In this document: one piece after another, positions 12,758 through 30,413 of the stretch
How positions within the stretch are numbered: the stretch's first letter is position 1
How the letters are laid out: each line of letters starts with the position of its first letter
Origin: an uncultured Planctomycetales bacterium
GTDB lineage: Bacteria; Omnitrophota; Gorgyraeia; Zapsychrales; Fredricksoniimonadaceae
DNA length: 64,000 bases
Reading direction: 5' to 3'
NCBI GenBank assembly: GCA_964520655.1
Contig: CAZFNI010000012.1
Coordinates: 1,917-65,916 of the forward strand
The notes under the pieces: model-generated
What the model saw: only the letters and a program-made list of their open reading frames with translations
Databases searched by the model: none
Told to the model about the DNA's origin: nothing
Position numbers and translations under genes: made by a program

Positions 12758-13144
12758 TTATATCCAATTGCAGATAAAAGCGTTCTTCAAATGTCTAATG
12801 TCAGGTCCGGAGCCTGAATGAAGAATAGAAACCACATCAAAAAGGCAAGCAATGCAGGTTGTTTGAAAACATCGTTTAAGGTAAAATTCAGCTAATTTGA
12901 TCAATTTCCGTTGTTTAAAATAATGCACGGCTTCAAACGGCTGGCCACAGGCAATTGAGGCGCGGGTTTTAACTTCGACAAACACAAGCGTCTGATCATC
13001 ACGAGCAATAATGTCGATCTCCCCCATACGGCAGCGGAAATTCCGCTCAACGATCTGGTAACCCAGCTTCGTCAAATATTGACAGGCCGCATCTTCACCG
13101 GATCTTCCAAGATTTTTTCGCGTCATAAGCCCAAAGTTGACCAA
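12758..13144 (-). CDS. yraN: YraN-family (UPF0102) predicted endonuclease
   Basis: 128 aa. GEDAACQYLTKLGYQIVERNFRCRMGEIDIIARDDQTLVFVEVKTR is the characteristic YraN/UPF0102 core. Confidence 0.75.
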   Translation of the reverse strand: MVNFGLMTRKNLGRSGEDAACQYLTKLGYQIVERNFRCRMGEIDIIARDDQTLVFVEVKTRASIACGQPFEAVHYFKQRKLIKLAEFYLKRCFQTTCIACLFDVVSILHSGSGPDIRHLKNAFICNWI

Positions 13145-14253
13145 AGCCCCGCTTGCTCACGGTTTTGCTCAACCATTTTCCTTTGTTCAGCATGCGCGCT
13201 ATCAGTAATATCACCCAACGTTTTCCCATATTCAGCTGTTGCACCAGCCTTTTCAAAGAAAGATTTCCTCTCACCTTCCAAAAAATTAATCCCTTTTGTA
13301 ATGATATTTTTGTAGCTGTTAGCAATATTCGGATGATCACGGTAGCGACCAAGCCAATCGATCGCCTCATTATACTGATCCATCGTCCAATACACTGAAA
13401 GACCCGACACAATATCTTCAATATGGTTCCTTAATTTTTTCTCATCAAAAGACAACAACAACAAAACTTCCGCCTCAGTAAATGGCTTTGCGGGTAACGA
13501 CAATGCATTAAGCAACTCACCATCTACCATATGCTTGGTCTTAAGCTCATCAATGGCTTGTTCAAGCATCGTCCTAGCCTCCTGCCGATGATCTTTCAAC
13601 ACTCGCCCGATCCTTTTAGCTGGGCCGCTCATCATCAATCCCGTTTTGGTGATCTTCCAGACCGGCAGGATCGCCAAGATCCTCTCTTTACGTTCCCCCC
13701 TGAGATTAAACGCGTCAAATAAATTCCCGAACAGATTATCCCCGTCGGAATATTGAAGATACTGGAACGCGCTGCCGCCCTGGCAGCTATCAAGAAGACC
13801 CGCCAGATCATTGCGGAATTCATGCCGGACAAAATATTTATCTCGCAAACAATCGAAAACTGACTGTTTACGCAATGCATTCAGATCCTGACGGTCATTT
13901 GATTCCAGATCCCCTAACCGCTTTTGGTCCATTGCGTACCTTAAATAGGCGATCGTCTGAAAATACTTATACACATCTGCCTCTGCCGGCGCAGCATACG
14001 ACCACAATAGTAACGGTGCATCGCCAATGCGCCTGCGTACGCTCCTGCGGCTTAATTGTTCGATCGACATCTCTATCTGCGCATCTCTATTCAACGTTGC
14101 TGAAAGCATCGGATGGATACCTTTTTCAGAATAGCGGTAAGGAGTTTTATAGGCTGTCATGAAACCCCCGTCGTCCTTATCCACTGCAAAAATATCCGTC
14201 CAGCCATTGATCGGCGCGATCAACATCAATATCCAGACTAAAATCCTCATCAA
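13123..14253 (-). CDS. Secreted hypothetical protein, last gene of the T4SS/T4P operon (possible Tra accessory protein)
   Basis: 376 aa. The N-terminal signal peptide is MMRILVWILMLIAPINGWT. No motif was recognised. It overlaps the upstream gene by 4 nt (ATGA). Confidence 0.5.
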   Translation of the reverse strand: MMRILVWILMLIAPINGWTDIFAVDKDDGGFMTAYKTPYRYSEKGIHPMLSATLNRDAQIEMSIEQLSRRSVRRRIGDAPLLLWSYAAPAEADVYKYFQTIAYLRYAMDQKRLGDLESNDRQDLNALRKQSVFDCLRDKYFVRHEFRNDLAGLLDSCQGGSAFQYLQYSDGDNLFGNLFDAFNLRGERKERILAILPVWKITKTGLMMSGPAKRIGRVLKDHRQEARTMLEQAIDELKTKHMVDGELLNALSLPAKPFTEAEVLLLLSFDEKKLRNHIEDIVSGLSVYWTMDQYNEAIDWLGRYRDHPNIANSYKNIITKGINFLEGERKSFFEKAGATAEYGKTLGDITDSAHAEQRKMVEQNREQAGLWSTLGL

Positions 14254-14696
14254 TTCCTCATTAATTGTCCCATGAGCACTTCCTGGGCCTTGATGATCTG
14301 CTCAGTTTTTTTCTCTTGCCATCTTAAATATTCCCTGGCGTTTTCCTGATTTGGCACATTCAAAAGATTCAGCACAGGCTGCGGCGGCTGATAATAAGTT
14401 ATCTTCCCGTTAGCATCAACCATCGGCTCCCGCCAATCGATCAAAGCTTTATCAGCCAAAAGATCAGACTTTTCTTTTTTCTCAAAATACTCCAAATGTT
14501 GTAAATGATAATAATCATTAGCGGAGGCTTTGTAAGGATGAACGATCAATATTACTATAAAGATGAGGGAACAGCAGTTTTGCAACATTGTATGAACCTC
14601 CAGAAGATCCAGGAGAATTCTTCCTCCTTGTTGCTCCGCTCGCCAACGGCATTCTTTGCCACCCAAAACCGGGGATCCTGACCCAACGGCATGCAT
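14250..14696 (-). CDS. Small secreted hypothetical protein (likely true start near 14588)
   Basis: An internal Met begins a signal-peptide-like segment, MLQNCCSLIFIVILIVHPYKASA. The upstream 5' extension overlaps the TraU-like gene out of frame. The mature part is about 90 aa with no recognised motif. Confidence 0.35.
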   Translation of the reverse strand: MHAVGSGSPVLGGKECRWRAEQQGGRILLDLLEVHTMLQNCCSLIFIVILIVHPYKASANDYYHLQHLEYFEKKEKSDLLADKALIDWREPMVDANGKITYYQPPQPVLNLLNVPNQENAREYLRWQEKKTEQIIKAQEVLMGQLMRN

Positions 14697-15310
14697 TTCT
14701 GTTGATCAGGCTCAACCATCTGGATCTTATCCTGCCAGCGGTTAATGGAAAAAAGGATCGGAGCTTGTGAAATATGCCCGCTCATAAGACCTCCGGCGCT
14801 GATACCTCTTAACGCGATCAATGCTGACGATGCCGCAGGACTGTAATGGCTGACAAATCCTGTTCGAGGATACACAGGCCCCCAATTGCCCACAAATTCA
14901 CGAGCAGTTGTCGTCTCTTGACGCCATTGACGGCTGTCCATCTCAGACCTATATCTCAGCCCCACAGCTGTATTCGTCAATGAGCCACATAAGACCATTT
15001 GTTCAATTTGTTTTAATGGAAAATCATACACATGTGCATCATGAAACCGCAGATTACTGCCGCTTAAAGCATTCAAGCTTGCCTTACGAGCGATCGTATG
15101 GATCACCAATGATGGTTCATAATACGAGATCCAAACTCCCGGAATATCCCCCACCATACAGGCCCCATGACTTTTAAGCTGCCAGCAACTTTGGTCAACA
15201 CGCTCAACCGCGTGCACCAGATTGATCCCGTCCCCCTTTATCTCATCCGCAGAATATGCAAGCACATGTGCGGCTAATATAAACCCTATCAGGATAATTA
15301 TCTTTTTCAT
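14555..15310 (-). CDS. traU: TraU-like F-type T4SS periplasmic protein (shortened relative to F-plasmid TraU)
   Basis: 251 aa with a signal peptide. Remembered F-plasmid TraU motifs are present in order: SCWQL (F: ICWSC), GVWISYYEPSLV (F: GLAIGYWEPMAL), HDAHVYDFPL (F: HVHWYKYPL), MVLCGSL (F: TSLGCLEGG) and YRSEMDSRQW (F: YLSEIDPTW). About 70 aa of the F protein are missing. Confidence 0.5.
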   Translation of the reverse strand: MKKIIILIGFILAAHVLAYSADEIKGDGINLVHAVERVDQSCWQLKSHGACMVGDIPGVWISYYEPSLVIHTIARKASLNALSGSNLRFHDAHVYDFPLKQIEQMVLCGSLTNTAVGLRYRSEMDSRQWRQETTTAREFVGNWGPVYPRTGFVSHYSPAASSALIALRGISAGGLMSGHISQAPILFSINRWQDKIQMVEPDQQKCMPLGQDPRFWVAKNAVGERSNKEEEFSWIFWRFIQCCKTAVPSSL

Positions 15311-16170
15311 AACTTCATAATGAAAGCTAATGCGTAAAACGGAGGCACATGACTATCAGGAATGATCGGATGCGTATGCGACTGATTGCCCCCCGTATCT
15401 GAAGTCAATGAACTGATCTGACCTGTCATGACTGGAGAACTGTGACCATCATATCGGCTCCCCAGCCAGGGCGTTTCATTATACGCATGATGGTGGGCTG
15501 GCATCTCCGCGATAGTCAACGCATGTGGCCCTGTTTCACTGCCATGATCGTGAGAAATACTACCGCCGCTTTTTTCTAATTTCCCCTGAAGATTGGTTTT
15601 ACTGACCCCACCCTCATCTTGCCGCGAGCCAACGATAAATTTATCGCGAAGATCCGGTGTACCATTCTGCCCATCACACAAAACCCAACCTAAAGGAATG
15701 CTGGCGATCGACCCAGACCACGCCACGATCACACCGGAAGCAATTTCATCTTGATCATTAGCCCCGGTAACACTACTCACAACATCTCCCGCGAATGACG
15801 CTTGCAGCAAACGCGAATTAATCATTGGCACTAAATTTAACGGCACTTGAACACTGACACTCATTTTTTTCTCATCAAACATCACTTGGTAGGGATGCCC
15901 CCAGGGGTTAAGTAAAGACCACAGCGGACTTAAGTAACCATCTATTTGCATCTGTTTTAAATCCGTTGGCCATTCATGATGATCCCTGTGATACTTTCTG
16001 CCAGCTGCCTGGATAACCCCCACCTCGGCAATTGTTTTCTCACCGGCACGGATCTCGACAGCGCGGACCATCACCGGCAATACCGCCGTTGTCAACAAAG
16101 CAACAATGCCCATGACGATCGCCAACTCAACTAACGAAAAACCATTTTTTCCTAGAATGTCGCGGTCCAT
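15307..16170 (-). CDS. Type IV prepilin-like protein, large (minor pilin or PilV-like tip-adhesin candidate)
   Basis: 287 aa. The N-terminus MDRDILGKNG|FSLVELAIVMGIVALLTTAVLPV is a class III signal peptide with Gly-1, Phe+1 and Glu+5. A large C-terminal globular region follows. Confidence 0.6.
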   Translation of the reverse strand: MDRDILGKNGFSLVELAIVMGIVALLTTAVLPVMVRAVEIRAGEKTIAEVGVIQAAGRKYHRDHHEWPTDLKQMQIDGYLSPLWSLLNPWGHPYQVMFDEKKMSVSVQVPLNLVPMINSRLLQASFAGDVVSSVTGANDQDEIASGVIVAWSGSIASIPLGWVLCDGQNGTPDLRDKFIVGSRQDEGGVSKTNLQGKLEKSGGSISHDHGSETGPHALTIAEMPAHHHAYNETPWLGSRYDGHSSPVMTGQISSLTSDTGGNQSHTHPIIPDSHVPPFYALAFIMKL

Positions 16171-16601
16171 GTCGTGCTCGCTTCATCATAGTTAACTTTT
16201 GACGCGCTATTATTGAAATAGTTACTTAGCTTATCCGCTTCCGTTTTGACCAAACTATTCAAACTAATGTCAAAACGTGTATTATCCACCGGATTGCTGG
16301 AAACATCAAATTTCCCGCCCCAAGGGTTTGATGCGGCTGCATCAAAAGTATCCGGTAATAATTTAGCTGTTTTTAAAGCCTCAACACTGACGCCCGAGAA
16401 ACTTACTTTACCCAATGCCAGGTAACTTTCTGCAGCGCTACGCAATGTCTGCACACTATTTGCCGCGGATTGAACCCTGGCATTATCCCTCAACCCCGCA
16501 GACATAGAGACCGCCAGGATCAATACAGTTAATACCGCAAGACCTATTGCGAGCTCCACCAAAGAAAACGCCCCTGTTGAATTAATATTGATCCGTTTCA
16601 T
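16152..16601 (-). CDS. Type IV prepilin-like protein (probable major pilin)
   Basis: 149 aa. The N-terminus is MKRININSTG(A)FSLVELAIGLAVLTVLILAV, a prepilin-type hydrophobic N-terminal helix. The cleavage site is either G|A (Glu at +6) or A|F (Glu at +5). Confidence 0.6.
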   Translation of the reverse strand: MKRININSTGAFSLVELAIGLAVLTVLILAVSMSAGLRDNARVQSAANSVQTLRSAAESYLALGKVSFSGVSVEALKTAKLLPDTFDAAASNPWGGKFDVSSNPVDNTRFDISLNSLVKTEADKLSNYFNNSASKVNYDEASTTWTATF

Positions 16602-16618
16602 ACTATCCTCCTTGTGTT

Positions 16619-17815
16619 TTAACCTCCAGCGATCTGATTCAAACTGCCGTAAACAGGGATCAGAAACGCAAAGGCAATGGTAACTAAAAATACGGCACCA
16701 ATGATCAATAGTGCCGGTTGAAGCAAAATCACCGCACGGTCTATCTGTTCGTTCACTCGCTTATTTAGATATTCTGACAAATTCAGGCAATACTGAGGAA
16801 GTCTCGCCATTTCCTCTCCGCGACGTATCGTCATCACGATCAGCGGAGAGAAAAATCGATCAGCTCCCAACGACTCCCACAATGTCCCGCCTCCAAAGAT
16901 ATAGTCCCTGCAACCATAAAAATGTCCGCTGACCGCATTGTTGTTATTAGCATGCAGATCGTCGATACCCTTAATGATCGATGTCCCATTACGCATCAGG
17001 ATCGACAGGTTCAAAAAATAGTACGCCAGATCCGCTTCTTTATTTATGCGCCCCCATATGGGTAAACGATAAACAACAAATTCTCGAATTCGTTTATTAT
17101 TGAATATGAACCCAGCAACCGAGACCAACACTGCTCCTATGATCAAAACTAATAATGCACCATATTGCCTCAGCCACAAGGTCGCAGCAATGATCACACC
17201 CGTTGTTCCATGAACGCGCGTTGATTCAGGCAATAACTGAGCTAATCGCGGTACCACATAAACCCCCACAAACAACATGACGGCACATAATAAGCAAAAT
17301 ACGATCGATGGATATACCAACGCCTCTCTTAATCGTCCCGACACTTCCTCCTGACGTTTAAAGTAATGTGCCAGCATCCTCAACGATCCCTTAAGTTCCC
17401 CACTTTGTTCTCCGCTTTTAATAGTCACCGTCACGATCCAGGGAAATGATTTTGTCGATGCAAAAGCGTCTGCCAAACCTTTCCCTTTGCTGACCTCACT
17501 TTTTATCCCTTCTATTGCGCCCATCAAAACTGCTGATAATTGCACGCTGGATACGGATGCCAGTATCTGGTTGATACTCATCCCTGTCTCATGCATATTC
17601 GCCATATCTTCAAAGAATCCCGACATGATCTTGATAGAGATCCGCTTCGCCCTCTTCAACTGAAGAAATGATCGTACCCAATCCATATAAACAATGATCA
17701 CGTCGATCTTATTGTTTTTTAAATAGCCCAAAACGCTTTCCTTATTCCCCTTAATCACTCCAGAGATTTCTTGACCTTGAGGGGTTATGCCTGAATATTT
17801 CCAATATCCCATCAT
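16619..17815 (-). CDS. GspF/PilC-family inner-membrane platform protein
   Basis: 398 aa. It has two repeated cytoplasmic domains and three TM segments, which is the T2SSF architecture. It immediately follows the GspE-like ATPase, with a 4-nt overlap. Confidence 0.8.
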   Translation of the reverse strand: MMGYWKYSGITPQGQEISGVIKGNKESVLGYLKNNKIDVIIVYMDWVRSFLQLKRAKRISIKIMSGFFEDMANMHETGMSINQILASVSSVQLSAVLMGAIEGIKSEVSKGKGLADAFASTKSFPWIVTVTIKSGEQSGELKGSLRMLAHYFKRQEEVSGRLREALVYPSIVFCLLCAVMLFVGVYVVPRLAQLLPESTRVHGTTGVIIAATLWLRQYGALLVLIIGAVLVSVAGFIFNNKRIREFVVYRLPIWGRINKEADLAYYFLNLSILMRNGTSIIKGIDDLHANNNNAVSGHFYGCRDYIFGGGTLWESLGADRFFSPLIVMTIRRGEEMARLPQYCLNLSEYLNKRVNEQIDRAVILLQPALLIIGAVFLVTIAFAFLIPVYGSLNQIAGG

Positions 17816-19419
17816 CCCAGCACCCTCACCGCTTCTTGCGGTGATATTGCCCCTTGTTTGACCATCATTTTTAATTGCTCAAACATCGCCCCCTCTATAC
17901 CATTTTCCCTGACATGTATTTTTATACCGCGAATATCACCCTCCAATAACATGGAATCAACTGGATCACCGCATTCCAAAACGCTAGCCACTACTGTCCG
18001 CCCCTTATAACCGTCATTACATCCAGAACAACCACCAGCAACTGAAACATCCTCTAACTCTTCCACAAATTTAAACTCACTGCTTGTCCACACAACATCC
18101 TGGCAATGCAGTCTCTGCTTACACAAAGGGCAAAGCAGTCTAACCAAGCGCTGAGAAATAATCATGGATAACGTCGAGGCCATATAGGCATACGGAATAC
18201 CGAGATCATGTAATCGCAATACAGCGTCGAACACCTGATTGGCATGCAGCGTTGCAAAAACCTTATGACCTGTCATCGCCGCCCGGATGGCCTCTTGCGC
18301 GGTAAGATCATCCCTGATCTCCCCGATCAGCATGATATTAGGATCATGTCTTAAGAAAGCTCGAACAGCATTACTGAACGTGATCAGCCGTTTGTCATTA
18401 GTCTGTACCTGAGTCATCAGCGTGTGATGCATTTCAACGGGATCCTCAATAGTCACGATCTTGCGCTCAATGGATTTAATATAATTGAGCATGGCATAAA
18501 GCGTCGTTGTCTTGCCGCAACCAGTTGGCCCAACGATCAGCGCCATCCCTTCCGGTTTAGAAAGCATTGACTTGATCCTTTTCCATAAATAATTGGGGTA
18601 TCCAAGAGAGATCAAGTCGATCGAAGATTTATTTCTATCTAACAAACGCAGCACCAGGGAACTGCCATTGACACAGGGTATGTGCGACACCCTGACATCG
18701 ATATTTTCCCCCCTGTTTTGATATGTAAATCTCGCGTCATGTAGACTGCTAAAATCACTAATGGTCACATCAGCCCTGTGAAAAACAATATTAACCAGCC
18801 TCCGCTGGAGATCCGAACGTAATACCCCATACGCATGCAGAATCCCGTCGATGCGTAGTCTTACTTCTAACGCTTTTGCCGAAGCCTCAATATGAATATC
18901 CGTAGCACCTCGTTTAAGCGCATCCTGCATGCAATGCTCAAACCAGGACAAAACATTGTCTTCATTGACACCCCCCCTGCAAGATACCGAATTTTCGTCA
19001 GCTGAGACCTTATCAATAGCCCTGCACAATGGCTCTTCAGCAGCCAGCATAAAACACGCTTTCGTGTTTAACTTATCCTGAATGACATCAATTGCTCCTA
19101 AATTATCACTATACGCCATAACAAAAACTATCCCATCATCGGTCTTTGCCGGAAACACTTTATGCTTAACGATAAAATCTTTTCCTAACGATGTGACCAT
19201 TCCCTTATGCGCTTCAAAATTACCCTTATAAACACCCCAGCCTGCTTGCCTAGCTAATGCAGAGATCATCTGTTCCTCATTTATAAAATCATAATCGGTG
19301 AGCAGCTTTCCCAAACGTTGACGAACTCCATGGTTTTGCAGAGACAGACAAAAATCTAATGTTTTTTCATCTATGAGACCTTCCCTTAGCAAAATATTCC
19401 CTAACCGCTGCCCTTCCAT
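17812..19419 (-). CDS. GspE/PilB-family type II/IV secretion ATPase
   Basis: 535 aa. The N-terminus is a T2SSE_N-like domain (LGNILLREGLIDEKTLDFCLSLQ...). The Walker A is GPTGCGKTT, with Asp and His boxes present. The C-terminus carries a tetracysteine motif, CPLC...C...CSGC. Confidence 0.9.
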   Translation of the reverse strand: MEGQRLGNILLREGLIDEKTLDFCLSLQNHGVRQRLGKLLTDYDFINEEQMISALARQAGWGVYKGNFEAHKGMVTSLGKDFIVKHKVFPAKTDDGIVFVMAYSDNLGAIDVIQDKLNTKACFMLAAEEPLCRAIDKVSADENSVSCRGGVNEDNVLSWFEHCMQDALKRGATDIHIEASAKALEVRLRIDGILHAYGVLRSDLQRRLVNIVFHRADVTISDFSSLHDARFTYQNRGENIDVRVSHIPCVNGSSLVLRLLDRNKSSIDLISLGYPNYLWKRIKSMLSKPEGMALIVGPTGCGKTTTLYAMLNYIKSIERKIVTIEDPVEMHHTLMTQVQTNDKRLITFSNAVRAFLRHDPNIMLIGEIRDDLTAQEAIRAAMTGHKVFATLHANQVFDAVLRLHDLGIPYAYMASTLSMIISQRLVRLLCPLCKQRLHCQDVVWTSSEFKFVEELEDVSVAGGCSGCNDGYKGRTVVASVLECGDPVDSMLLEGDIRGIKIHVRENGIEGAMFEQLKMMVKQGAISPQEAVRVLG

Positions 19420-19420
19420 C

Positions 19421-19951
19421 TTAACCCCCGATCAAAATAACCTTCTCTTTGCCATCTTTTGTTCTGAGCACCGCCTTATCATCATCGATCCTCACTACGG
19501 TCACGTCACCACGAAGCATCTGGCCCGCTTTTGCTGACACTCTTACACTGTGATCCAACAGCAATCCTAGACGTTCATTCCCAATACGAACAATACCTTG
19601 CAGCTTGATAGGAAAATTTTCCGTATCCTGCTCTTTTTTCTCATTCAACATGGACGTAAAATTATCCTCCTGATCTAATTTTTTGATCCTGGAACGCAGA
19701 TCAGCGCGCTGTAGATCAAGATTTAAGAGTTTTATTTCCCGCATCCGCTTGTTTTCCTGATCAATAAAATCGTCTACATCCTGACGATCTGAGCGCACCG
19801 ATCCTTTTGAGACCATCTGGTCCACCATAGACACTTCCTGTGCATACACATTGCTAAACTCAAGAACAAATACCAGCAAACAAACTAATATACTAAGCCC
19901 CATACACACCCCCATTGATCTGCAGCATGTTATCTTTGAACGCCACGTCAT
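19421..19951 (-). CDS. PilP/GspC-like periplasmic pilus-assembly protein (N-terminal TM, coiled coil, C-terminal beta domain)
   Basis: 176 aa. There is one N-terminal TM segment. The C-terminal segment LQGIVRIGNERLGLLLDHSVRVSAKAGQMLRGDVTVVRIDDDKAVLR resembles the PilP/HR domain. The assignment is by architecture only. Confidence 0.35.
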   Translation of the reverse strand: MTWRSKITCCRSMGVCMGLSILVCLLVFVLEFSNVYAQEVSMVDQMVSKGSVRSDRQDVDDFIDQENKRMREIKLLNLDLQRADLRSRIKKLDQEDNFTSMLNEKKEQDTENFPIKLQGIVRIGNERLGLLLDHSVRVSAKAGQMLRGDVTVVRIDDDKAVLRTKDGKEKVILIGG

Positions 19952-20396
19952 TCTCTATGATCGGGAACTGCTGCTGCCATATTTTATAGTGCCTCAAGAT
20001 ACGAAATATCTCCTCAGGATCCTGAATTTTGAAGAATGAGATCCTGAAAGCAAACCGCTTGATCCCTTCAAAGACCATTGAAGTGTTTTTTATATCAAAA
20101 TCACTATTGGAGATTATCTCGACCTTCATGTTATACCCATAGGTATCCGCATCATGGGTAATTCGAGCAAGGAACCTTGAATAATATTGATCGACTCTTG
20201 ATAAAATTATATCTTCCCTGGATTGAAGAATATCCAATGTTCGTTGTGCATGCAAAATTCTCTCCTTACTCCCCATAATTAGATTTTGTAAATGAAAGCA
20301 TTCTTTTAATATTGGGTAACATGCAAACACAACAATTAGTCCAATCAATAAGCTGCTGATCAAAGTCTTTTTCATCACATCACCTATTCTTTCCAA
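19893..20396 (-). CDS. PilO-like bitopic pilus-assembly protein
   Basis: 167 aa. It has a single N-terminal TM segment (LISSLLIGLIVVFACYPI) followed by a periplasmic domain. The assignment rests on position and architecture only. Confidence 0.3.
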   Translation of the reverse strand: MERIGDVMKKTLISSLLIGLIVVFACYPILKECFHLQNLIMGSKERILHAQRTLDILQSREDIILSRVDQYYSRFLARITHDADTYGYNMKVEIISNSDFDIKNTSMVFEGIKRFAFRISFFKIQDPEEIFRILRHYKIWQQQFPIIENDVAFKDNMLQINGGVYGA

Positions 20397-21538: not shown

Positions 21539-21539
21539 T

Positions 21540-23060: not shown

Positions 23061-23400
23061 ATTTCTCCTTTTGTTGGATTACAAAATCCTCAGATTCTTT
23101 GATCCATTCTCCTGGCTTGATCATGACCAGTTCTTTATGTTCTGGAATAAATGCCCCCTGATCAATATGCCCAGGAATACTGATCTCTTGAACGAGAGGA
23201 GCACTCCAATGATAATCTGGCATAACCTTATAATGACCTTCCTCAAGTATCTGTGATACTTGCTGTTTTACAGCATGTTGATAACTCTTAACATTCATAC
23301 TCTGTTCTGAGAATCTTGCTGTAGCACATCCCGCAAACATCAAAATGAATATCCCCCAGAAATTATTGCAGCCCATATGGATACTCCTTGGCACATACAT
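22942..23400 (-). CDS. Small lipoprotein (PilL-like position, immediately upstream of the secretin)
   Basis: 152 aa. It has a probable lipobox, ILMFAGC. Its 3' end overlaps the secretin start by ~100 nt, so either boundary may be different. Confidence 0.4.
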   Translation of the reverse strand: MYVPRSIHMGCNNFWGIFILMFAGCATARFSEQSMNVKSYQHAVKQQVSQILEEGHYKVMPDYHWSAPLVQEISIPGHIDQGAFIPEHKELVMIKPGEWIKESEDFVIQQKEKYVPNSEDHDFNTVADITSVPNHLGASGTVEYQGKGRNNQ

Positions 23401-25819
23401 TTATGGCCTCAATAAGATCACCGTTCAAAGATTCCACCTTCTGCCACAAATAATCATTATTCCTTGGTTCTGAATTAGCTACCCAATACAAGAATGGATC
23501 AGGAACAAGACGAATGACGCCAGTAGAATTCTCCGACATCACTAAACACTCAGAATATTGGCCTTTAATTGTTTTAATGGATTTAAGTAATTGGATTTTT
23601 TCATCATCGAACGACAATGTCTCTTTAAGCAAATCAATAACTGCTGGATCTTGTTTGAGAAAGATCTTATTGGCCGCATTCGCAATGATCGCCATCCCGC
23701 TTTCTACTCGTGTTAGATCAGCAATCTCCTGTGTTATCGCTATGGTTGAGCAGCGGTATTTTCGGAATGTTTTAAAAGCATTGGTGATAAAATCCGACGT
23801 GTTCTTGACTTTTAATAATGACCACGCCTCATCTATCAATAAATATTTTCGTTTGATCCTCATTGAATCACTGGACACAAAATTTGTCATAAAGAACATT
23901 AGATTCAATAAAACGGCTAACTGCAAATCAGGATATGAACTCAAATTGGCCAATTCAAATACCACAAAACGGGTATTTATCGTGAATTGATTTGGACCGT
24001 CAAAAAATCGGCCATACGGCCCCTTGTTTGTAAACGGGGTCAATCGCAATGCCAGTGTCGGCCCCATCAATGAATTTATACCGCAGCGTTCATTAAAATA
24101 ACTGTCATTAAGAACATTCGTTACATCACTTAAGAACACCTCTGATTTCTCCTTATTATTCTTATAGGCCGTCATAATTGCTTGCTGCAATAACCCTTCC
24201 TCTTCCCGGCTCAAACGGTATCGGTCATCACCACCGCTGGCCATTTGCGATAGCAACGATAAAAGGAAAGATATATTATCTGGCGTGGGTTCATGAGCAA
24301 ATGGGTTGATTGTGACAGGATCGTTCAAATAAAGACTAATGTATTGGCCATTTAAAACCTGGCAAAGCTTCTTATAAGAATCACCCTTATCCAAAACAAA
24401 AAAATGACTGCCTAAACGATCTGCCTGAAGTATAAAATCATTGATAAAAAAACTTTTTCCGGATCCAGATGCTCCAACAACAATTCCGTGCGGGTTAATA
24501 TTCGAATCAAACATATCAAAGAAAACAACTTCATCCCTGCGGTTAGAATACATTTGTGCCGGAGTTGATGTTCCTTGAAATGCACCGAAGATCGGAAGCA
24601 TATCTGCGACATTAATTGACAACAATCTCCTGGATCTTCTAATAAAATTCTCATAATAGGGATCAAAATTAAGCGGCAAACACGTCAGGAATAATGATGC
24701 CCCTATCAGGTCCTCCTTTATCCCGCCGCATTGATATCGGTTTAGACCATTAATGATCTGATCACCAAGATTTTCAACCTCCTCTGCACTTTCCCCAAAT
24801 ACAACCCAATGGAACCTGGCGTTAATTATCTTTTGTCCTCCCTGATACATAGCCCTAACAACTTCATCCAGTTCCTCCTTTTTCGCAACCTCCTCAACCG
24901 ACTTGTCTCCCAACCAATTCTCCTTATGCATGAATGCAAAGTCCTTCTGGATCTTGATCCGCCTTAAAGCATCTTGAGGATCGGCTGACGTCATATTCAC
25001 CACAAAAAGCATAGACTTGGCCTGGTCAAGCAAACTGAATGGTTGAGCCCCTTGAAATTCCTTAGTAAACATGCCGATCGTTGTATGGGCAGGCATTTCT
25101 TTTAAGCTCACAACCCTCATGTATTGGCCCTCGAAATTAAAACCCTTACCACTTGCTTGCGGTGAATTAAAAAGAACCTGGTCTCTTATATTCAGATTAT
25201 TTTCCAGCCTGACATCTGGCACGCTCATGGAACGTTTGGGATTCATTAATTGATATAATAATTGTGTTAGCTCCTGCTCTAAGACAGGCTTAACAGATAC
25301 GCCGGAAGTCTTGAGTAGCCCTCCCAAAAGAGAAGTATGTTGCTCAAATACCTTTTTATGCTCACACAACTCATTTTCAATCCCTTGTGAATGCTTTTTC
25401 CACACAGGGAAGAATCTGATCGTGATATACACATCAATTGCTCTCGTAAAACAGCGCTTCCCATTGTTTTTCTGACGTTTGGTTGCATAAAAAGATGTTG
25501 TCGTTACACCTTGAGCATTCTCTTGGAATTGATCATATTGATCATTCTTGTCCTTACTATTAACATTGACATTCATGATCATTTGACAGGCTAAACGGTC
25601 ATGCGGGAGCCTGGTCAAAACAGTCTGCCAATGCTGCACCAGAATATTCATATCCCTTTGTGTTCTTCCTTCTGAATCAACAAGATTTATCTTCCAAACT
25701 TTTCCCATACTCCCATCAGATAATAAACAAACGTCATCGCAAAACTCAACATACGGCAAAAGATCGACAAAACTCATGCCTTCAGAGAACAATGCCTCTA
25801 TATTCTTGTAACGCAACAC
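23363..25819 (-). CDS. traC: TraC/VirB4-family T4SS ATPase
   Basis: 818 aa. The Walker A is GIVVGASGSGKSFFIND. The Walker B / 'DEAW' motif is RKYLLIDEAWSLL. The size and domain order are VirB4-like. Confidence 0.8.
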   Translation of the reverse strand: MLRYKNIEALFSEGMSFVDLLPYVEFCDDVCLLSDGSMGKVWKINLVDSEGRTQRDMNILVQHWQTVLTRLPHDRLACQMIMNVNVNSKDKNDQYDQFQENAQGVTTTSFYATKRQKNNGKRCFTRAIDVYITIRFFPVWKKHSQGIENELCEHKKVFEQHTSLLGGLLKTSGVSVKPVLEQELTQLLYQLMNPKRSMSVPDVRLENNLNIRDQVLFNSPQASGKGFNFEGQYMRVVSLKEMPAHTTIGMFTKEFQGAQPFSLLDQAKSMLFVVNMTSADPQDALRRIKIQKDFAFMHKENWLGDKSVEEVAKKEELDEVVRAMYQGGQKIINARFHWVVFGESAEEVENLGDQIINGLNRYQCGGIKEDLIGASLFLTCLPLNFDPYYENFIRRSRRLLSINVADMLPIFGAFQGTSTPAQMYSNRRDEVVFFDMFDSNINPHGIVVGASGSGKSFFINDFILQADRLGSHFFVLDKGDSYKKLCQVLNGQYISLYLNDPVTINPFAHEPTPDNISFLLSLLSQMASGGDDRYRLSREEEGLLQQAIMTAYKNNKEKSEVFLSDVTNVLNDSYFNERCGINSLMGPTLALRLTPFTNKGPYGRFFDGPNQFTINTRFVVFELANLSSYPDLQLAVLLNLMFFMTNFVSSDSMRIKRKYLLIDEAWSLLKVKNTSDFITNAFKTFRKYRCSTIAITQEIADLTRVESGMAIIANAANKIFLKQDPAVIDLLKETLSFDDEKIQLLKSIKTIKGQYSECLVMSENSTGVIRLVPDPFLYWVANSEPRNNDYLWQKVESLNGDLIEAINVCAKEYPYGLQ

Positions 25820-26226
25820 TATTTAATCTCCTCTTCTACTTCTTCTTTTTTGGGGATAACGACCGAAGAGCTTGACCTTTGCACTTCTTGATCATCGAAC
25901 CACCTTGGCCCCTGGACCATCACATAGACCCAATGTCCAGATACTAAAACGCCTGTATCATCAACAGAACGGTGATTGGGAACCCAAACTTTCTTTACTA
26001 CAGGGGGTTTGATAACAGGAACATAAGGTTTCACATACCCAAACACTTTTTGCTCCCTAAAACGCTCTGCCACAAATTTTTCTACATCTTCCTTAGCTTC
26101 TCGCATGCTATGATGATACATATCTTCCATAGGCACTCTGCTGTTAGAACTCTGCCTGATCTGCCGATGCCCGCAGCCATTAATTAAGAACATCAATGTG
26201 ATTAACATCACGACGTAATAGACCAT
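25819..26226 (-). CDS. TraV-like (VirB7-like) outer-membrane lipoprotein
   Basis: 135 aa. It has a lipobox, LINGC. It is small and Pro/Val-rich, and lies between the TraB and TraC homologues as in F-like tra operons. Confidence 0.35.
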   Translation of the reverse strand: MVYYVVMLITLMFLINGCGHRQIRQSSNSRVPMEDMYHHSMREAKEDVEKFVAERFREQKVFGYVKPYVPVIKPPVVKKVWVPNHRSVDDTGVLVSGHWVYVMVQGPRWFDDQEVQRSSSSVVIPKKEEVEEEIK

Positions 26227-27337
26227 CGATCATCACTCCTTTTTGAACGACGAAATTAATACTAGTGCCACTGGGCACATGCACAGCAGGTATGATATTT
26301 TGCGTTTGTTTATCGTAATACTGCGACAACTCAGCGGCGCTTTTGGAAAGTCCGGAAAACATGGCGTATTTACCAGCATCCCCCGTGACATTACGTTCAA
26401 CATTACCAAATCGTCCAGATACAGATGTCTGCTCGCTATCAGCCAACGCAGATGACCCTCCAGCCATAAATCCGCCCATAAAAGCCAGTGCCAAAGCTTT
26501 TCCTGTACTGTGCACCAACTGTCCATGTATCCCTAACTCTCCATGACGGTCCGTTACATAACCAATCTCCTGTTCTTTCTCAAAAACCTTACCGTCAGGT
26601 TGAACATAAGAAATCGCAATGATCTGGATTAAGGCACGTTGAGAATTGATGTCCCCTATAGCCTTCCCCAAAGCAAATGCACCCTTTAACGGTATACGCG
26701 CATTGTTGGGCCCGTAAAATGCCTCATCAAGCGTGATCAATACTGGTAATGGACTATTGACATCAACTGACGCATATACTCCTGTTAACAATGTACCTTT
26801 ACAGAAAGAACCGATCGGTAAATACACATCATACTTTTTATTAATAACCCCTCTTACCGGAGCAATCTTCAATTCATAAGATGATTCTTTTGAAATATCA
26901 GAAGAAATTGAAAGCTTACCCAGATCTTCTTTAATTGTTGACAATGTGCCACTGATGTTGAGCTGTTCTTTTTTGTATTGCTCATCTGCCTGTTTTATAC
27001 CTTTGATCTGTTCCTCCATCTCTTTTATCCTGTCTTCAAAATCATAATAATTCTTTTGGAGGCCTTTCATAACTTCCAAACGTTCTGTGTCTCCAACTTT
27101 GACACCTTCATCATCAATGCGCAGTTGCGTACCCTGCTGTTTCGACTTTTCTAAAGAATGTTCATCGCTAGACCATATATAAGATCCAACAACCACTATC
27201 AACAAGACCACACCATAAATGATTAGCGGATTCTTATGCTGAATCGACTTGAGTATTTCAAATAGTTCGTTCATTTGCCTGTATGATAAATATTGTTGTG
27301 TGATCTCTTGCTTGACCCTCTGGCGCAAGGACATCAT
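26180..27337 (-). CDS. traB: TraB/VirB10-family T4SS protein
   Basis: 385 aa. The order is N-terminal TM, coiled coil, then a C-terminal beta-barrel domain. VirB10-like motifs are present: GTLLTGVYASVDVNSPLPV, IPLKGAFALGKA and IPAVHVPSGTSINFVV. Confidence 0.65.
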   Translation of the reverse strand: MMSLRQRVKQEITQQYLSYRQMNELFEILKSIQHKNPLIIYGVVLLIVVVGSYIWSSDEHSLEKSKQQGTQLRIDDEGVKVGDTERLEVMKGLQKNYYDFEDRIKEMEEQIKGIKQADEQYKKEQLNISGTLSTIKEDLGKLSISSDISKESSYELKIAPVRGVINKKYDVYLPIGSFCKGTLLTGVYASVDVNSPLPVLITLDEAFYGPNNARIPLKGAFALGKAIGDINSQRALIQIIAISYVQPDGKVFEKEQEIGYVTDRHGELGIHGQLVHSTGKALALAFMGGFMAGGSSALADSEQTSVSGRFGNVERNVTGDAGKYAMFSGLSKSAAELSQYYDKQTQNIIPAVHVPSGTSINFVVQKGVMIDGLLRRDVNHIDVLN

Positions 27338-27914
27338 CCAAGGATGCAGCGGCTATGATATTCTCAAGACTTAATTGATCTAGAGGGACATTGACCCTAC
27401 GATCAGATTTATTCCTTGCCGTTATGCCATACACCCTAAATTGAGGAAAATCATACGCCAACTCAAAATCTAAAGTAATGTGTGAGTTTTCAAGTACTAT
27501 TTGGCGCTGAACCTTGATCTTTACTGCCCCGGCTGGCTCATTTCCCTGCAGCAAAATTTTCATGATATCGATTGCACTAATCCCGCTCTGATATTTACTA
27601 GAGTTCACACTATTGCCATTGACAACCACATTAAGATCATGCTGTGTAGAAACCTTTAAATTGATCGGATAAGATTTTCCTGATACTCCTTTAACAAAGA
27701 CGTCTGAGGGCGCTTCCGTTTTAGGCAAAATAAAAAGGGAATTATCCATGGCCTCAACTAGTAGGGAATCACTCGCCCCTCCCTTGATTACTTGGGCAAT
27801 ATTCTCTGGAAATGAGACCTCCGAAACTTTACCAACTTCTACATGAACACTTGTTACTTCTTCAGCAAATACTGTAGTAGCCAACATTAAAATAGCGATA
27901 AGGAGTGCATTCAT
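27258..27914 (-). CDS. TraK-like (VirB9-like) periplasmic/OM core protein
   Basis: 218 aa with a signal peptide and a predicted beta-rich fold. It is positioned between the TraE and TraB homologues. Confidence 0.4.
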   Translation of the reverse strand: MNALLIAILMLATTVFAEEVTSVHVEVGKVSEVSFPENIAQVIKGGASDSLLVEAMDNSLFILPKTEAPSDVFVKGVSGKSYPINLKVSTQHDLNVVVNGNSVNSSKYQSGISAIDIMKILLQGNEPAGAVKIKVQRQIVLENSHITLDFELAYDFPQFRVYGITARNKSDRRVNVPLDQLSLENIIAAASLDDVLAPEGQARDHTTIFIIQANERTI

Positions 27915-28567
27915 ATACTTAGCTCCTGATCAATTGACGCCACGATCAAACCCAAAGGATTCTGTTCCGTTGGAGCCACTACATTGATAAGAATCTTAAA
28001 GGTTATATCCTGCTCTTTTACCATTTGCTTCCCCATGAATAACGTCTTTTTAGTCTTGATGGTCACTTTATAATCACCTCTTTCTTTCTTCACCGAAGGC
28101 TCATCAATGACAGTCAATAATGAAGATATTTCACTTTGTTTTATCTCCTCTAGATCTTTACTTAAGCGCGTGCGCGTTTTTGACAATACATATGGCGACA
28201 TAAATCGCTGCGCGCGTGCATAAGCATTTGACGCCGTCACCGGATTGAAATTATTCCAATCCATGATCCATTTGGACACAAAGGTCGATACAACCATAGA
28301 CATATCCGATATTGGCAAAGCCACCCCTGCTTGATATACATTAGGAACATAATAAATAGATTTAGGCTTAACCACTGTCCACATAATGATCCCCGCAAAA
28401 GCCAAACTGACAATCCCAAGCAATAGACAAACGTAAAGCATCCGCTGATACATCAATTCTGATCTTGTCCATCGTTCCACAAACTGAGTACTTTTAGAAT
28501 GTTGTGCTTGCATATGATCCATAATGAGAAACTCCCCTAGGTGACGGAGGCAAACCTGGAAGTCCAA
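27911..28567 (-). CDS. TraE-like (VirB8-like) bitopic T4SS protein (probable true start at an internal Met, ~180 aa)
   Basis: It has a single N-terminal TM segment (LYVCLLLGIVSLAFAGIIMW) followed by a periplasmic domain. It is F-TraE-sized when started at the internal Met. The upstream extension overlaps traL. Confidence 0.45.
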   Translation of the reverse strand: MDFQVCLRHLGEFLIMDHMQAQHSKSTQFVERWTRSELMYQRMLYVCLLLGIVSLAFAGIIMWTVVKPKSIYYVPNVYQAGVALPISDMSMVVSTFVSKWIMDWNNFNPVTASNAYARAQRFMSPYVLSKTRTRLSKDLEEIKQSEISSLLTVIDEPSVKKERGDYKVTIKTKKTLFMGKQMVKEQDITFKILINVVAPTEQNPLGLIVASIDQELSI

Positions 28568-28784
28568 GGCCCTGAGAATATAACCAATGCATCAAATAGC
28601 CAGGCGGTTTTCCACTTTTCAATCTGGATATAAGTATCCAACATATGATCCCTATCGCTCCGGGAACATAAGGTTCAAACAACAAACCGCCAATACCAAT
28701 GACCAATACCACCGCCGCAAGGTCCTCTTGTTCTAGTCCAAAGAATGTTTGTGGCTTATCTATTGTTCGATAGCATGTGTGCAT
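28494..28784 (-). CDS. traL: TraL-like (VirB3-like) T4SS protein
   Basis: 96 aa. YRTIDKPQTFFGLEQEDLAAVVLVIGIGGLL parallels the F TraL YRFPKTLD..IIGLPLDEAIPAAVLLL. KSGKPPGYLMHWLY parallels KKGRSPYWLYNYCY. Confidence 0.55.
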   Translation of the reverse strand: MHTCYRTIDKPQTFFGLEQEDLAAVVLVIGIGGLLFEPYVPGAIGIICWILISRLKSGKPPGYLMHWLYSQGLGLPGLPPSPRGVSHYGSYASTTF

Positions 28785-28787
28785 GTA

Positions 28788-29069
28788 TTAGCCAGTCGCT
28801 ACCCTTTCTAATAAGAGCGGCAAAAATAACAACATTACAAAAGCTACAGCACTAGCAATTGCCAGCTTATATCTTCCTCTTAGCAAAGACGCTACACCTG
28901 ACAGCAGTATCACCACGCCTAACAATTTTGCGATAGGCCCCTTAAGCATCAATACAGACTTCTCTGAAAATTCTTGTACTGTTTTCTCTGGATCATCTGC
29001 CCACACAAATGAAACAAAATCAATTAGATATAAATGCATCAGTACCACCATCTTCATCAAAGATCGCAT
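28788..29069 (-). CDS. TraA/VirB2-like conjugative-type pilin precursor
   Basis: 93 aa. It has a leader peptide, then two hydrophobic helices separated by a basic loop (LRGRYK). This is the F-pilin/TrbC architecture. It is the first small gene after the polytopic membrane protein. Confidence 0.45.
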   Translation of the reverse strand: MRSLMKMVVLMHLYLIDFVSFVWADDPEKTVQEFSEKSVLMLKGPIAKLLGVVILLSGVASLLRGRYKLAIASAVAFVMLLFLPLLLERVATG

Positions 29070-29070
29070 C

Positions 29071-30261
29071 TTAACCTCCTTTAAATATAAGCATTCTGGT
29101 TAATAATACCTGGAACAACAACGATATTAAAAATGCGCCCACAAAGAATGGTTGCTCCCATGCCCACGAAACTTCTTGTTTAAGGACTACTTGTGTTTGA
29201 GCTTGGGCGACCAAGATTGCAGTATAATGACTTATCGCCGCACTCAGTACCCATGATTTGATCCAGATAAGATTTCTGCAGTATTCTCGGAACATCCCGG
29301 GTTGAACGTCTATAAATAATGACAGGACTACAAAAGGGAAGAGAATAGATAAGGTCATCTGTGCAACGCCATGAATATAGGGCAATGCTCGCATTGACCA
29401 GTAAAGCAATTTTGAACAAATCTTTTCTATTCCCTGAGAACTCTTAAGAATATTGTGTTGGGCAAATGACGCCATAATACATTGTTTGACGTCGTTGTCA
29501 TTGTGAGAATCAAGGAATGGTAAGAATACAGCCCTTGCGTCGCGTCTTAAATATTGATTGGACTCCAAATACTTATCACATAATGCACTTAAACTTTTTG
29601 AACCAACCCACTGTTTTTCGGCATACGCAGGATAAAGTTCAAGAATATTTTTATGTCCTGGCCCAATAATCCCAAGAGTTTGATTGGAATTCTCAATCTT
29701 ATAGCGCGATAACACAGGAGCGTATTGCTCATCAATAAAAGACTTAAATCGGTAAGAAAGACCCGAATCCAAAAATCCCACTCTGCTCGCTTCTCTTATA
29801 TAGGCGCTTTGGGTTTCAATGAAATATCCCTTGGGTAGAAACTTCGCTTCTACTGACATGGACTTATCCATCAGGCTAATAATGGCAAAGAATACTTGAT
29901 CTACAGCTCGGCTAATAAACGTAAAAAACACAGGCACTCGATCAATACTTGTTATTGTGTTCTTTAAAGACTTGCTACTACGAAAAGATTTATCGTTAAG
30001 CTCCTGATAGCTACTGATGTCTTTCTGTTCAAAGGATGGCAAAAGCATTAGAACAAGCACAATGATTATAGAGAAGAAAGAAATAAGTAAGTTGAAATGA
30101 CCCGTTCGAATATACCGCCACAGGCTCAGCAAAAAAACTGAACCACCTACCACTAAACCTATCCCGCTCCTCCTGAAAATGTAGTCCATCAGGATATGGG
30201 TAAAGTTAAGGCCAGCTAAATTTAACGCAGCATCTACTGAAGTTAAACCAAACAAATTCAC
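29071..30261 (-). CDS. Polytopic inner-membrane protein, TraG-N/VirB6-like candidate. It is the first gene of the operon.
   Basis: 396 aa with about 7 hydrophobic helices and a central periplasmic loop. No ATPase motifs are present. The assignment is by topology and context only. Confidence 0.3.
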   Translation of the reverse strand: MNLFGLTSVDAALNLAGLNFTHILMDYIFRRSGIGLVVGGSVFLLSLWRYIRTGHFNLLISFFSIIIVLVLMLLPSFEQKDISSYQELNDKSFRSSKSLKNTITSIDRVPVFFTFISRAVDQVFFAIISLMDKSMSVEAKFLPKGYFIETQSAYIREASRVGFLDSGLSYRFKSFIDEQYAPVLSRYKIENSNQTLGIIGPGHKNILELYPAYAEKQWVGSKSLSALCDKYLESNQYLRRDARAVFLPFLDSHNDNDVKQCIMASFAQHNILKSSQGIEKICSKLLYWSMRALPYIHGVAQMTLSILFPFVVLSLFIDVQPGMFREYCRNLIWIKSWVLSAAISHYTAILVAQAQTQVVLKQEVSWAWEQPFFVGAFLISLLFQVLLTRMLIFKGG

Positions 30262-30413
30262 AAACGAGGAAAAACTATTGGGGGAGGTTATTACACTATC
30301 TGACTTAGATTCGTTGGGAGAAACGAAATATTAACTAATAAGCAAATTATATTGATTATTACACAAATGTCAAGAAATTTAATATCATTTGCGCAAAATA
30401 AAAAGAAGCCTTT
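30262..30413 (-). promoter_or_regulatory. AT-rich 152-nt intergenic region, probable promoter of the T4SS/T4P super-operon
   Basis: This is the only sizeable gap upstream of the 21-gene block. It is AT-rich (…aaatttaatatcatttgcgcaaaataaaaag…). Confidence 0.3.

Follow-up and report, generated by a model that had tools for sequence, protein, structure and literature searches.

An F-type type IV secretion operon that encloses a type IV pilus module, conserved in the Omnitrophota

The 64-kb window analyzed here (64,000 nucleotides of contig CAZFNI010000012.1, from an uncultured bacterium labelled Planctomycetales and placed by GTDB in the Omnitrophota) carries a 21-gene cluster in which the genes of an F-type type IV secretion system (T4SS) are split by a type IV pilus block. 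A TraG_N-like protein to TraC are encoded before the block, and TraU, the N-terminal part of TraF, and TraH after it. The arrangement recurs throughout one clade of the Omnitrophota and is apparently undescribed. The explanation proposed here, to which about an even chance is given, is that the cluster encodes one co-inherited, probably co-transcribed apparatus for target-cell capture followed by transfer, which would serve as a host- or prey-contact device. All positions are those of the window, and the genes are numbered g01 to g21 in the order in which they are read.

The cluster occupies ~17.5 kb of the minus strand, from 30261 to 12758, as 21 co-directional open reading frames (ORFs) whose junctions either overlap or leave a gap of at most 17 nt. 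The widest gap, 17 nt, lies between 16619 and 16601, and over-extended ORF starts account for the large overlaps. The order called in an original prediction made from the sequence alone is borne out by this ORF layout. A sigma-70-type promoter matching the consensus at 12/12 positions (TTGACA, 16 nt, TATAAT; 30346–30373, minus strand) is found in the 152-nt gap upstream of g01, and terminator-like sites within the cluster are fewer than expected (10 versus 14.9 ± 4.0 in shuffled sequence). A single transcript for all 21 genes is plausible from these sequence features. Families were assigned with Pfam and NCBIfam/TIGR hidden Markov models (HMMs) at their curated cut-offs, and weak cases were pursued through orthologues, jackhmmer, and hhalign.

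The genes upstream of the pilus block hold the TraL-TraE-TraK-TraB-TraV order that precedes TraC in class F mating-pair-formation (MPF-F) systems, and three of them, TraL, TraB, and TraV, pass curated cut-offs. TraL (g03, VirB3-like; 28494–28784, minus strand as for all genes of the cluster) matches PF07178 at 31.3 bits (gathering threshold, GA, 24.4) and TIGR02762 at 32.2 bits (cut-off 30.95). TraB (g06, VirB10/TrbI; 26180–27337) matches PF03743 at 75.7 bits (E 6e-21) and the F-type TraB model NF010289 (E 2e-21). The TraV lipoprotein (g07; 25819–26226) matches PF09676 at 24.2 bits (GA 21) and has a conserved lipobox. The block ends with TraC, the F-type VirB4 ATPase (g08; 23363–25819), which is matched by PF11130 (TraC_F_IV; 44.3 bits, GA 28.1), by PF19044 (P-loop_TraG; 139.9 bits), and by TIGR02746 with an E-value of 4e-110, at 369 bits under an equivalog cut-off of 567.

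The remaining four genes of this part fall under curated cut-offs in the window copy, and their assignments are backed by orthologue matches to PF05309 and PF07916 and by jackhmmer links to proteobacterial F-type loci. The first, g01 (29071–30261), is a TraG_N-like (VirB6-type) polytopic membrane protein (Pfam TraG_N E 6e-8, 32.4 bits against a GA of 36.1) whose orthologue in Candidatus Velamenicoccus archaeovorus matches PF07916. A small T4SS pilin with two transmembrane (TM) segments (g02, TraA/VirB2-like; 28788–29069) matches Pfam TrbC/VirB2 below GA (E 0.0017) and is linked by jackhmmer to the ORF that precedes traL in proteobacterial F-type loci. TraE (g04, VirB8-like; 27911–28567) is weak in the window copy (TIGR02761 E 5e-4, and DUF2895), and its orthologues match PF05309. 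Between traE and traB lies the TraK/VirB9-like periplasmic core protein (g05; 27258–27914), with weak TIGR03749, VirB9, and TraK matches; in jackhmmer searches it reaches the TraK of plasmid pTHEAM01 and the VirB9 of plasmid pMBL96.

Downstream of the pilus block the Tra set continues. TraU (g18; 14555–15310) is shortened and covers only the C-terminal part, a third to a half, of its model (PF06834 E 4e-16, 59.8 bits). The next two genes had been listed as secreted unknowns and are instead a TraF fragment and TraH. The first (g19; 14250–14696, with a likely start near 14591) is an N-terminal segment of TraF: PF13728 is matched by 11 of 17 orthologues (best E 1e-15), and the CxxC thioredoxin domain of the long orthologues is missing from the window copy. 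The second (g20; 13123–14253) is a TraH-like periplasmic protein, which PF06122 recovers in one of seven orthologues (E 8e-6) and which follows TraU and TraF in all loci. It is because of these two genes that the Tra set is seen on both flanks of the pilus block. Taken together, the F-type assignments of the original prediction stood, with TraL, TraB, TraV, TraC, and TraU recovered by HMM and TraE and TraK reached through orthologues and jackhmmer. No Pfam or NCBIfam match to TraN, TraW, or TrbC was obtained among the 21 cluster proteins. The last gene (g21; 12758–13144) encodes a YraN/UPF0102 nuclease-fold protein (PF02021 106 bits, E 1.5e-30) and overlaps the end of traH. YraN belongs to the unit only in the closest relatives of the window, with the same position in L002 and L087 (L numbers denote related loci), and it is absent after traH in Velamenicoccus-type loci and most subclades.

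The block between traC and traU, which had been predicted as a secretin and type IV pilus module and is confirmed as such, holds the core of a generic type IV filament machine: secretin, ATPase, platform, a GspL/PilM-N-like protein, and pilins with class III signal peptides. The secretin (g10; 21540–23060), the outer-membrane channel, matches PF00263 at 119 bits (E 2e-34). Its best NCBIfam model is MshL (216.7 bits, cut-off 250.2), the PilN-family model TIGR02520 scores lower (136.6 bits, cut-off 287.65), and PilQ, BfpB, and GspD among PDB sequences all score ~64 bits. The extension ATPase (g14; 17812–19419) is of PilB/GspE type (PF00437 317 bits, E 1e-94), closer among PDB sequences to PilB (250 bits) than to the type IVb ATPase BfpD (99 bits), and carries an N-terminal MshEN-type domain for binding cyclic di-GMP (c-di-GMP), which passes the cut-off of 38 for the MshE-related model NF053729 at 44.6 bits. 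The GspF/PilC platform (g15; 16619–17815) shows two PF00482 repeats (127 bits, E 7e-37). Two pilins are encoded, and a type II secretion system (T2SS) pseudopilin set is absent. The major pilin (g16; 16152–16601) is weakly PilS/bundlin-like (PilS 20.9 bits, GA 22; weak Bundlin and N_methyl matches), and FSLVELAIG can be read from its sequence as the prepilin N-terminus.

Three further proteins are encoded between the secretin and the ATPase. The 384-residue g11 (20384–21538) yields nothing at the sequence level: Pfam, a family profile against the PDB, and Pfam scans of 24 orthologues gave no consistent match, and homologue searches seeded with g11 or its alignment recovered the query alone. 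The call of a PilM/N-like protein was nevertheless upheld by an AlphaFold model with a mean predicted local distance difference test score (pLDDT) of 92.5, built with 51 library homologues (a single-sequence model has a pLDDT of 41). The model places a cytoplasmic PilM/GspL actin-like domain before a TM helix with coiled coil and a periplasmic domain, and Foldseek matches the N-terminal domain to PilM (5eox, 5eou, 2ych) and EpsL/GspL (1yf5, 4pht) with E-values of 4e-10 to 4e-7, which points to a GspL-like assembly-platform protein. The family is rare, with 83 representatives among 1.84 billion proteins. A bitopic membrane protein with one N-terminal TM segment (g12; 19893–20396) has no Pfam match and no similarity to IncI PilM; it is a putative GspM/PilO analogue by position, and a positional orthologue is found in every full locus. 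The PilP-like g13 (19421–19951), a predicted secretin-binding beta domain, was recognized correctly in the original prediction, as its family aligns over the full length with IncI PilP (hhalign 90.4%, E 1.4e-6).

The module had also been described as a complete type IVb pilus, of which the pilus machine and the PilP-like protein stand. The label itself is rejected because the ATPase is PilB/GspE-like rather than of type IVb, the secretin scores best with the MshL model, the prepilin peptidase, lytic transglycosylase, and retraction ATPase are missing, and there is no similarity to PilO2, PilM, or PilL. Pfam found neither a lytic transglycosylase nor a shufflon in the cluster. Compared with hhalign, using plasmid pSH1148_107 for the IncI side, PilO2, PilM, and PilL fail as homologues of g11, g12, and g09 (probabilities of 0.3%, 0.2%, and 6.7%). 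The module is better described as a compact filament machine of the type IV kind, with mixed affinities.

Two proteins of the block, a lipoprotein and a minor pilin, bear most directly on how the machines might be joined. The lipoprotein preceding the secretin (g09; 22942–23400) had been taken for a PilL counterpart and proves to be a second TraV-like lipoprotein: its family aligns with the TraV family (hhalign 95.6%, E 1.2e-8), and an un-iterated g09 HMM matches the TraV of the window at 2e-6. The same un-iterated HMM finds the g09 domain as the N-terminus (residues ~30–110) of the secretin polypeptide itself in eight related loci (L031, L032, L037, L039, L040, L041, L044, and L053), and g09 and the fused secretins share the motif W-x-A-P-V-V-Q-E-V-x-x-P-A-...-P-G-A-W. 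Because of this gene fusion, the TraV-like domain and the secretin are taken to function together. TraV has an established role in the outer-membrane core of the F system, and the secretin may be tied by g09 to the TraK/TraB/TraV core. Family profiles of g09, g07, g11, and g20 gave no meaningful match to PDB sequences.

The minor pilin (g17; 15307–16170) is a 287-residue chimera that starts as a type IV pilin and carries a phage tail-fibre tip of the tail-collar, gp12-like kind; it is a putative tip adhesin. Residues 3–76 match pilins in a comparison of the family profile with the PDB, the profile also reaches tail fibres (9qgo E 2e-19; 9nxk 1.5e-17; T4 short tail fibre 1e-5), and Pfam reports N_methyl and Collar matches. 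In the IncI2 plasmid TP114 and in R64, the minor-pilin adhesin PilV binds recipient surface structures and sets the specificity of conjugation (PMC9045228). By analogy, g17 is a putative counterpart of PilV as a target-binding tip.

The cluster is a family spread through one phylum rather than the one-off chimera initially supposed. Nearly all homologues of TraC at 45–69% identity come from Omnitrophota metagenome-assembled genomes (MAGs) and from Ca. V. archaeovorus, and a scan of GTDB species genomes found ~50 related TraC loci. Genes g01 to g20 are collinear in the genomes of ~45 GTDB species, which carry the label Omnitrophota or, wrongly, Planctomycetales, with TraC 43–69% identical to that of the window and down to 37% in L005. 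The closed, PCR-finished genome of Ca. V. archaeovorus (CP019384) has a collinear locus. On every contig that is long enough, g09 and the secretin come after TraC, and metagenome loci collected around TraH likewise show the order pilins-TraU-TraF-TraH. Relatives of TraC with an identity of 32% or less, from Proteobacteria, the candidate phyla radiation (CPR), and others, are accompanied by neither a secretin nor pilus genes; the CPR loci hold a Tra-only version with TraU and TraF. Matrices of pairwise identity for TraC correlate with those for the secretin, g11, the T2SSE-family ATPase, and the T2SSF-family platform at Spearman coefficients of 0.77–0.85, compared with 0.79 for TraB. Since the order is conserved and the pilus proteins have diverged in step with TraC, no less closely than TraB has, the whole set of pilus and Tra genes is inherited as one unit.

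Several loci depart from the standard order. L034, L035, L036, and L042 keep secretin-g11-g12 beside TraC and TraH, with the pilus motor and pilins missing nearby, and some of these lineages also keep g13. L106 and L107 (JGI Ga0265295_1001275 and Ga0208824_1000385) are rearranged to T2SSE-T2SSF-three pilins-TraG_N-TraF-TraH. That such independently rearranged lineages still hold pilus and Tra genes together supports one device. In L115 the pilus block is present and no TraU, TraF, or TraH follows. Within some operons foreign genes are found: an Imm_superinfect and NYN pair between traL and traE in V. archaeovorus (L001, 5813–6807), an ORF6N gene between traV and traC in L002 (9427–10014), and an insertion of ~4.5 kb that includes a ParE toxin in L114 (2294–6727).

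A few loci carry doubtful labels or lie outside the phylum. L008, L011, and other 'uncultured Planctomycetales' loci group with Omnitrophota by TraC identity, and their labels look unreliable. A complete bacterial-type cluster is found in a MAG labelled Candidatus Micrarchaeia archaeon (L053, JAVZXS010000008.1), whose contig is probably mis-binned. In L057, from a Nitrospirae-labelled MAG, a TraK-TraB-TraV-...-TraC series (3925–13210) is broken up by two 23S-rRNA-IVP genes, and after it comes a 324-residue protein with a GspC/PilP-like C-terminus. A secretin proposed there by jackhmmer was rejected, as Pfam finds only a 23S-IVP domain in it. Since that secretin is unconfirmed by Pfam, the hybrid is not claimed outside the Omnitrophota clade.

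The proposed apparatus would have arisen when an F-type T4SS permanently acquired a secretin-dependent type IV pilus machine. Its T4SS part would consist of the VirB4/TraC motor, an inner-membrane part of TraL, TraE, and TraG, an outer-membrane core of TraK, TraB, and TraV, the VirB2-like pilin, and the periplasmic TraU, TraF, and TraH. First, the PilB-type ATPase, gated by c-di-GMP via its MshEN domain, would extend the pilus through the secretin. The minor pilin with its tail-fibre receptor-binding tip would then bind a surface glycan of another cell, whereupon the TraC-powered T4SS would make a transfer junction, with the second TraV-like lipoprotein linking the secretin to the outer-membrane core of the T4SS. 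Such an apparatus would work like the thin pilus and T4SS pair of IncI/IncI2 plasmids, hard-wired into one operon. Gene content, conserved order, co-divergence, the fusions, and the tail-fibre pilin are observations; the physical link between secretin and T4SS core, the sequence of events, the cargo, and the biological role are inferred. Omnitrophota are described as ultra-small predators or parasites that depend on pili for attachment (PMC10066038).

A bolder form of this reading is a single hybrid trans-envelope nanomachine, in which the T4SS core would be docked on the secretin via the TraV-like domain and the tail-fibre-tipped pilus would act as the target-seeking filament. It is put forward tentatively and is, on balance, rather unlikely.

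A number of observations weigh against a contact device. No prepilin peptidase is found in the cluster or the 64-kb window, and no retraction ATPase (PilT) in the cluster. L024 has Tra genes and none of the pilus block, which is dispensable in that lineage. The GC content at third codon positions (GC3) is 0.34–0.50 in the cluster versus 0.51–0.59 in the flanking housekeeping genes, which suggests horizontal acquisition. In the Velamenicoccus-type subclade, a 254-residue protein and a type IV coupling protein (T4CP) are inserted between g01 and g02, both of which the clade of the window lacks; the T4CP (754 residues, TraG-D_C) lies within the cluster in 10 Velamenicoccus-type loci. In L106 and L107, traH is followed by ParA, a 222-residue tyrosine recombinase, and an N6/N4 DNA methylase fused to an Mrr-like domain, because of which this version probably sits on a mobile element. 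Finally, single MAGs have 2–4 TraC copies at 40–55% identity to the window.

These last four observations also form the case for the strongest rival, in which the cluster is the mating-pair-formation module of an Omnitrophota-specific integrative and conjugative element (ICE) or plasmid. The pilus would be a mating pilus, the T4CP, relaxase, and integrase would be encoded elsewhere or recently lost, and the apparatus would perform ordinary DNA conjugation among Omnitrophota cells. The flanks are in keeping with this, as they differ between genomes and toxin-antitoxin, NYN, ORF6N, and defence genes occur in and around the clusters of relatives, and so are the plasmid precedents in which a T4SS occurs together with a type IV pilus (IncI, pMBL96, and pTHEAM01). 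Against it, no T4CP is present in the clusters of the clade of the window or, by jackhmmer seeded with the V. archaeovorus T4CP, anywhere in the 64-kb window; Pfam scans found no relaxase and no integrase or recombinase among window ORFs of at least 100 residues, and none of six annotated contexts has a relaxase or integrase within ±10 kb. No tRNA adjoins the cluster, so that tRNA-linked integration is rejected. The flanks of the cluster in the window are housekeeping genes (MsbA/LpxB, a Bat/MoxR operon, MetH, FeoAB), as are those of L115 and L116, and lipid A genes adjoin both the window cluster and L115 (WaaA and LpxK in the latter).

Because the window lacks a T4CP, relaxase, and integrase and the flanks are housekeeping genes, a contact device of an ultra-small epibiont is likelier than an active conjugative element, and the conjugative reading is possible but doubtful for this locus. 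The family probably descends from the transfer apparatus of a conjugative element, and the copy in the window has the look of an intact resident version without a T4CP. Some family members may be parts of mobile elements that simply conjugate, which also tells against a common contact function. The multi-copy MAGs (L015, L017, L022, and L030 in CAYOMI01; L034 with L056; L027 with L058) could hold paralogous systems, mobile copies, or mixed bins.

The modules might instead be two independent machines that share a promoter or neighbourhood and are uncoupled physically and functionally. Each has the parts to stand alone, and L024, with its Tra genes but no pilus block, and L115, where the pilus block lacks TraU, TraF, and TraH downstream, would fit separate machines. 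This is improbable in view of the Tra genes that flank the pilus block on both sides down to 37% TraC identity, the co-divergence of pilus proteins with TraC, the fusion of the TraV paralogue to the secretin, and the lineages that keep the secretin, g11, and g12 with Tra genes but no pilus motor or pilins.

Alternatively, the cargo may be non-conjugative, with the cluster serving DNA uptake (pilus and secretin acting as in competence, along with a ComB-like T4SS and the YraN nuclease encoded last in the operon) or T2SS-like export of periplasmic substrates, for example of the giant, Sec-dependent 3197-residue protein encoded next to it. T4SSs without a T4CP, such as ComB and Ptl, exist, and the absence of a T4CP from the window, the overlap of YraN with traH in the window, L002, and L087, and the giant secreted protein 98 nt downstream all agree with such a role. 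Secretion loci are also reported to adjoin Omnitrophota giant genes (West-Roberts et al., 10.1101/2023.11.21.568195). The giant ORF was rejected as a component of the system, however, as no homologue lies beside any related cluster; YraN is not found after traH in most subclades; two pilins do not make up a T2SS pseudopilin set; and the tail-fibre-tipped pilin points to the binding of cell surfaces rather than DNA. We give uptake or export little credence.

An assembly chimera that joined T4SS and pilus contigs at ~21.5–23.4 kb, a check called for at the outset and one for which the GC3 step inside the cluster might speak, is ruled out by synteny conserved across ~45 genomes, as the TraC-g09-secretin and pilin-TraU junctions are found again in dozens of assemblies that were made independently, in different studies and with different assemblers, including a closed genome and contigs of 200–630 kb, and the junction genes overlap frame-consistently. 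The step itself lies near 20.4 kb, with g01–g11 at ~0.34–0.44 and g12–g20 at 0.44–0.50, and possibly reflects a composite history.

That a T4SS can be partnered by an accessory type IV pilus is known, and the arrangement in the window belongs to that partnership. A functional parallel is found in IncI1/IncI2 plasmids (R64, TP114, pSH1148_107), which encode, along with a T4SS, a secretin-dependent type IV pilus whose genes run in the order lipoprotein, secretin, large platform protein, PilP, ATPase, platform, pilin, and minor pilin. The likeness extends to the PilP-like g13 and to a large minor pilin as the adhesin (PilV) by which the target cell is selected and held. However, the pil operon of these plasmids is separate and lies beside an I-type (Dot/Icm-like) T4SS, whereas the pilus genes of the window lie inside an F-type tra operon. 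The window also differs in its PilB/GspE-like rather than IVb ATPase, in its tail-fibre-type adhesin, in having no similarity to PilO2, PilM, or PilL, and in lacking a prepilin peptidase, lytic transglycosylase, and shufflon in the cluster and a relaxase and T4CP in the window.

The MPF-F system of the F plasmid shares the traA-L-E-K-B-V-C order followed by traU, traF, and traH, an F-type TraC, and a TraG_N-like protein. In comparison with it, no TraN, TraW, or TrbC was found, TraU and TraF are shortened, a second TraV paralogue is present, the secretin and pilus machine are inserted after traC, and the window has no TraD or TraI; the locus is moreover chromosomal and belongs to a non-proteobacterial phylum. 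Islands of the PAPI-1/ICEclc type (MPF-G) need a type IVb pilus for T4SS transfer and encode the pil cluster apart from the T4SS genes. The window TraE and TraK weakly match families of these islands (DUF2895, DUF3438, TIGR03749), and the window TraC is far better matched by the F-type model (369 bits) than by the PFL_4706 model (147 bits). To MSHA, type IVa, and T2SS machines the module is linked by a secretin that scores best with MshL, an MshE-type c-di-GMP domain, PilB/GspE-like core, and GspL-like platform protein; it differs in scoring below equivalog cut-offs, in having only two pilins and no pseudopilin set, PilT, or prepilin peptidase, and in being embedded in tra genes.

Plasmids show that the original claim that T4SS and thin pilus are always encoded separately was too strong, as IncI, pMBL96, and pTHEAM01 co-locate both. 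Vibrio alginolyticus pMBL96 (NZ_CP013488) and related Vibrionaceae plasmids run co-directionally from VirB4...VirB11-VirD4 into a pilus block (L117, 11930–18928), which lies directly downstream of VirD4 and a topoisomerase and encodes first a second VirB9-family protein, then TcpQ, a secretin, and a type IV pilus ATPase. This is a separate instance in which a secretin is accompanied by a T4SS core paralogue. The plasmid differs in that its T4SS is P-type, the modules are in tandem and not interleaved, the plasmid is mobilizable with a MOBP relaxase, no secretin fusion is seen, and its secretin is 24.5% identical to that of the window. Thermovibrio ammonificans pTHEAM01 (NC_014917, MPF_F) combines F-type TraC, TraE, TraK, TraB, TraV, and TraU and a T4CP on one replicon with a secretin operon that abuts traK-traB, two type IV pilus-type ATPases, a platform protein, and pseudopilins. 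As a plasmid with several divergent operons, no homologues of g09, g11, or g12, and a secretin 22.5% identical to that of the window, it too is distinct. All precedent secretins are at most 26% identical to the window secretin, and no precedent is interleaved.

What appears to be new is the interleaved F-type operon, the link between a TraV-like domain and a secretin, the tail-fibre pilin, and the phylum-wide conservation. In agreement with the original prediction, no paper describing the arrangement was found, although Kizina et al. 2022 may still mention tra genes. Work on Omnitrophota covers type IVa pili, Tad pili, and T2SS-like loci near giant genes, and reports no Tra genes (PMC10066038; 10.1101/2023.11.21.568195; two 2026 preprints).

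Other features of the window lie outside the cluster. The giant ORF occupies 3066–12659 of the minus strand, and its product has a Sec signal peptide, a Gly/Thr/Ser-rich composition (G 17.5%), 55 'GIGT' motifs, and a single Cys; with no Pfam domain and one weak PDB match, it looks like a fibrous surface protein. Overlapping its end by 16 nt, a 551-residue protein (1426–3081, minus strand) with ~10 predicted TM segments and C-terminal tetratricopeptide (TPR) repeats could act on the giant protein as a membrane-bound modifier or be its partner. Similar TPR proteins are found upstream of the cluster in L010 and L011. A BatA-BatD/MoxR/DUF58 aerotolerance-type operon (34838–41744, minus strand) and a lone tRNA-Arg(CCT) gene (50732–50808, plus strand) are apparently unlinked to the cluster.

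The Omnitrophota are widespread, uncultured, ultra-small bacteria thought to be predators or parasites, for which the cluster is a clade-conserved candidate for a host-contact machine. It is present in Ca. V. archaeovorus, the sole enriched representative with a closed genome. The cluster is also a natural case of a T4SS and a type IV pilus welded together genetically, down to a T4SS core-lipoprotein domain fused to a secretin, and is relevant to the cooperation of mating pili with T4SSs and to the origin of new envelope machines through the capture of modules. A pilin with a phage tail-fibre receptor-binding tip is a part of interest for secretion-system biology. If the hybrid nanomachine is real, it would represent a new architectural class, with which Omnitrophota nanobacteria would attach to a host or prey cell and then inject into it or extract from it.

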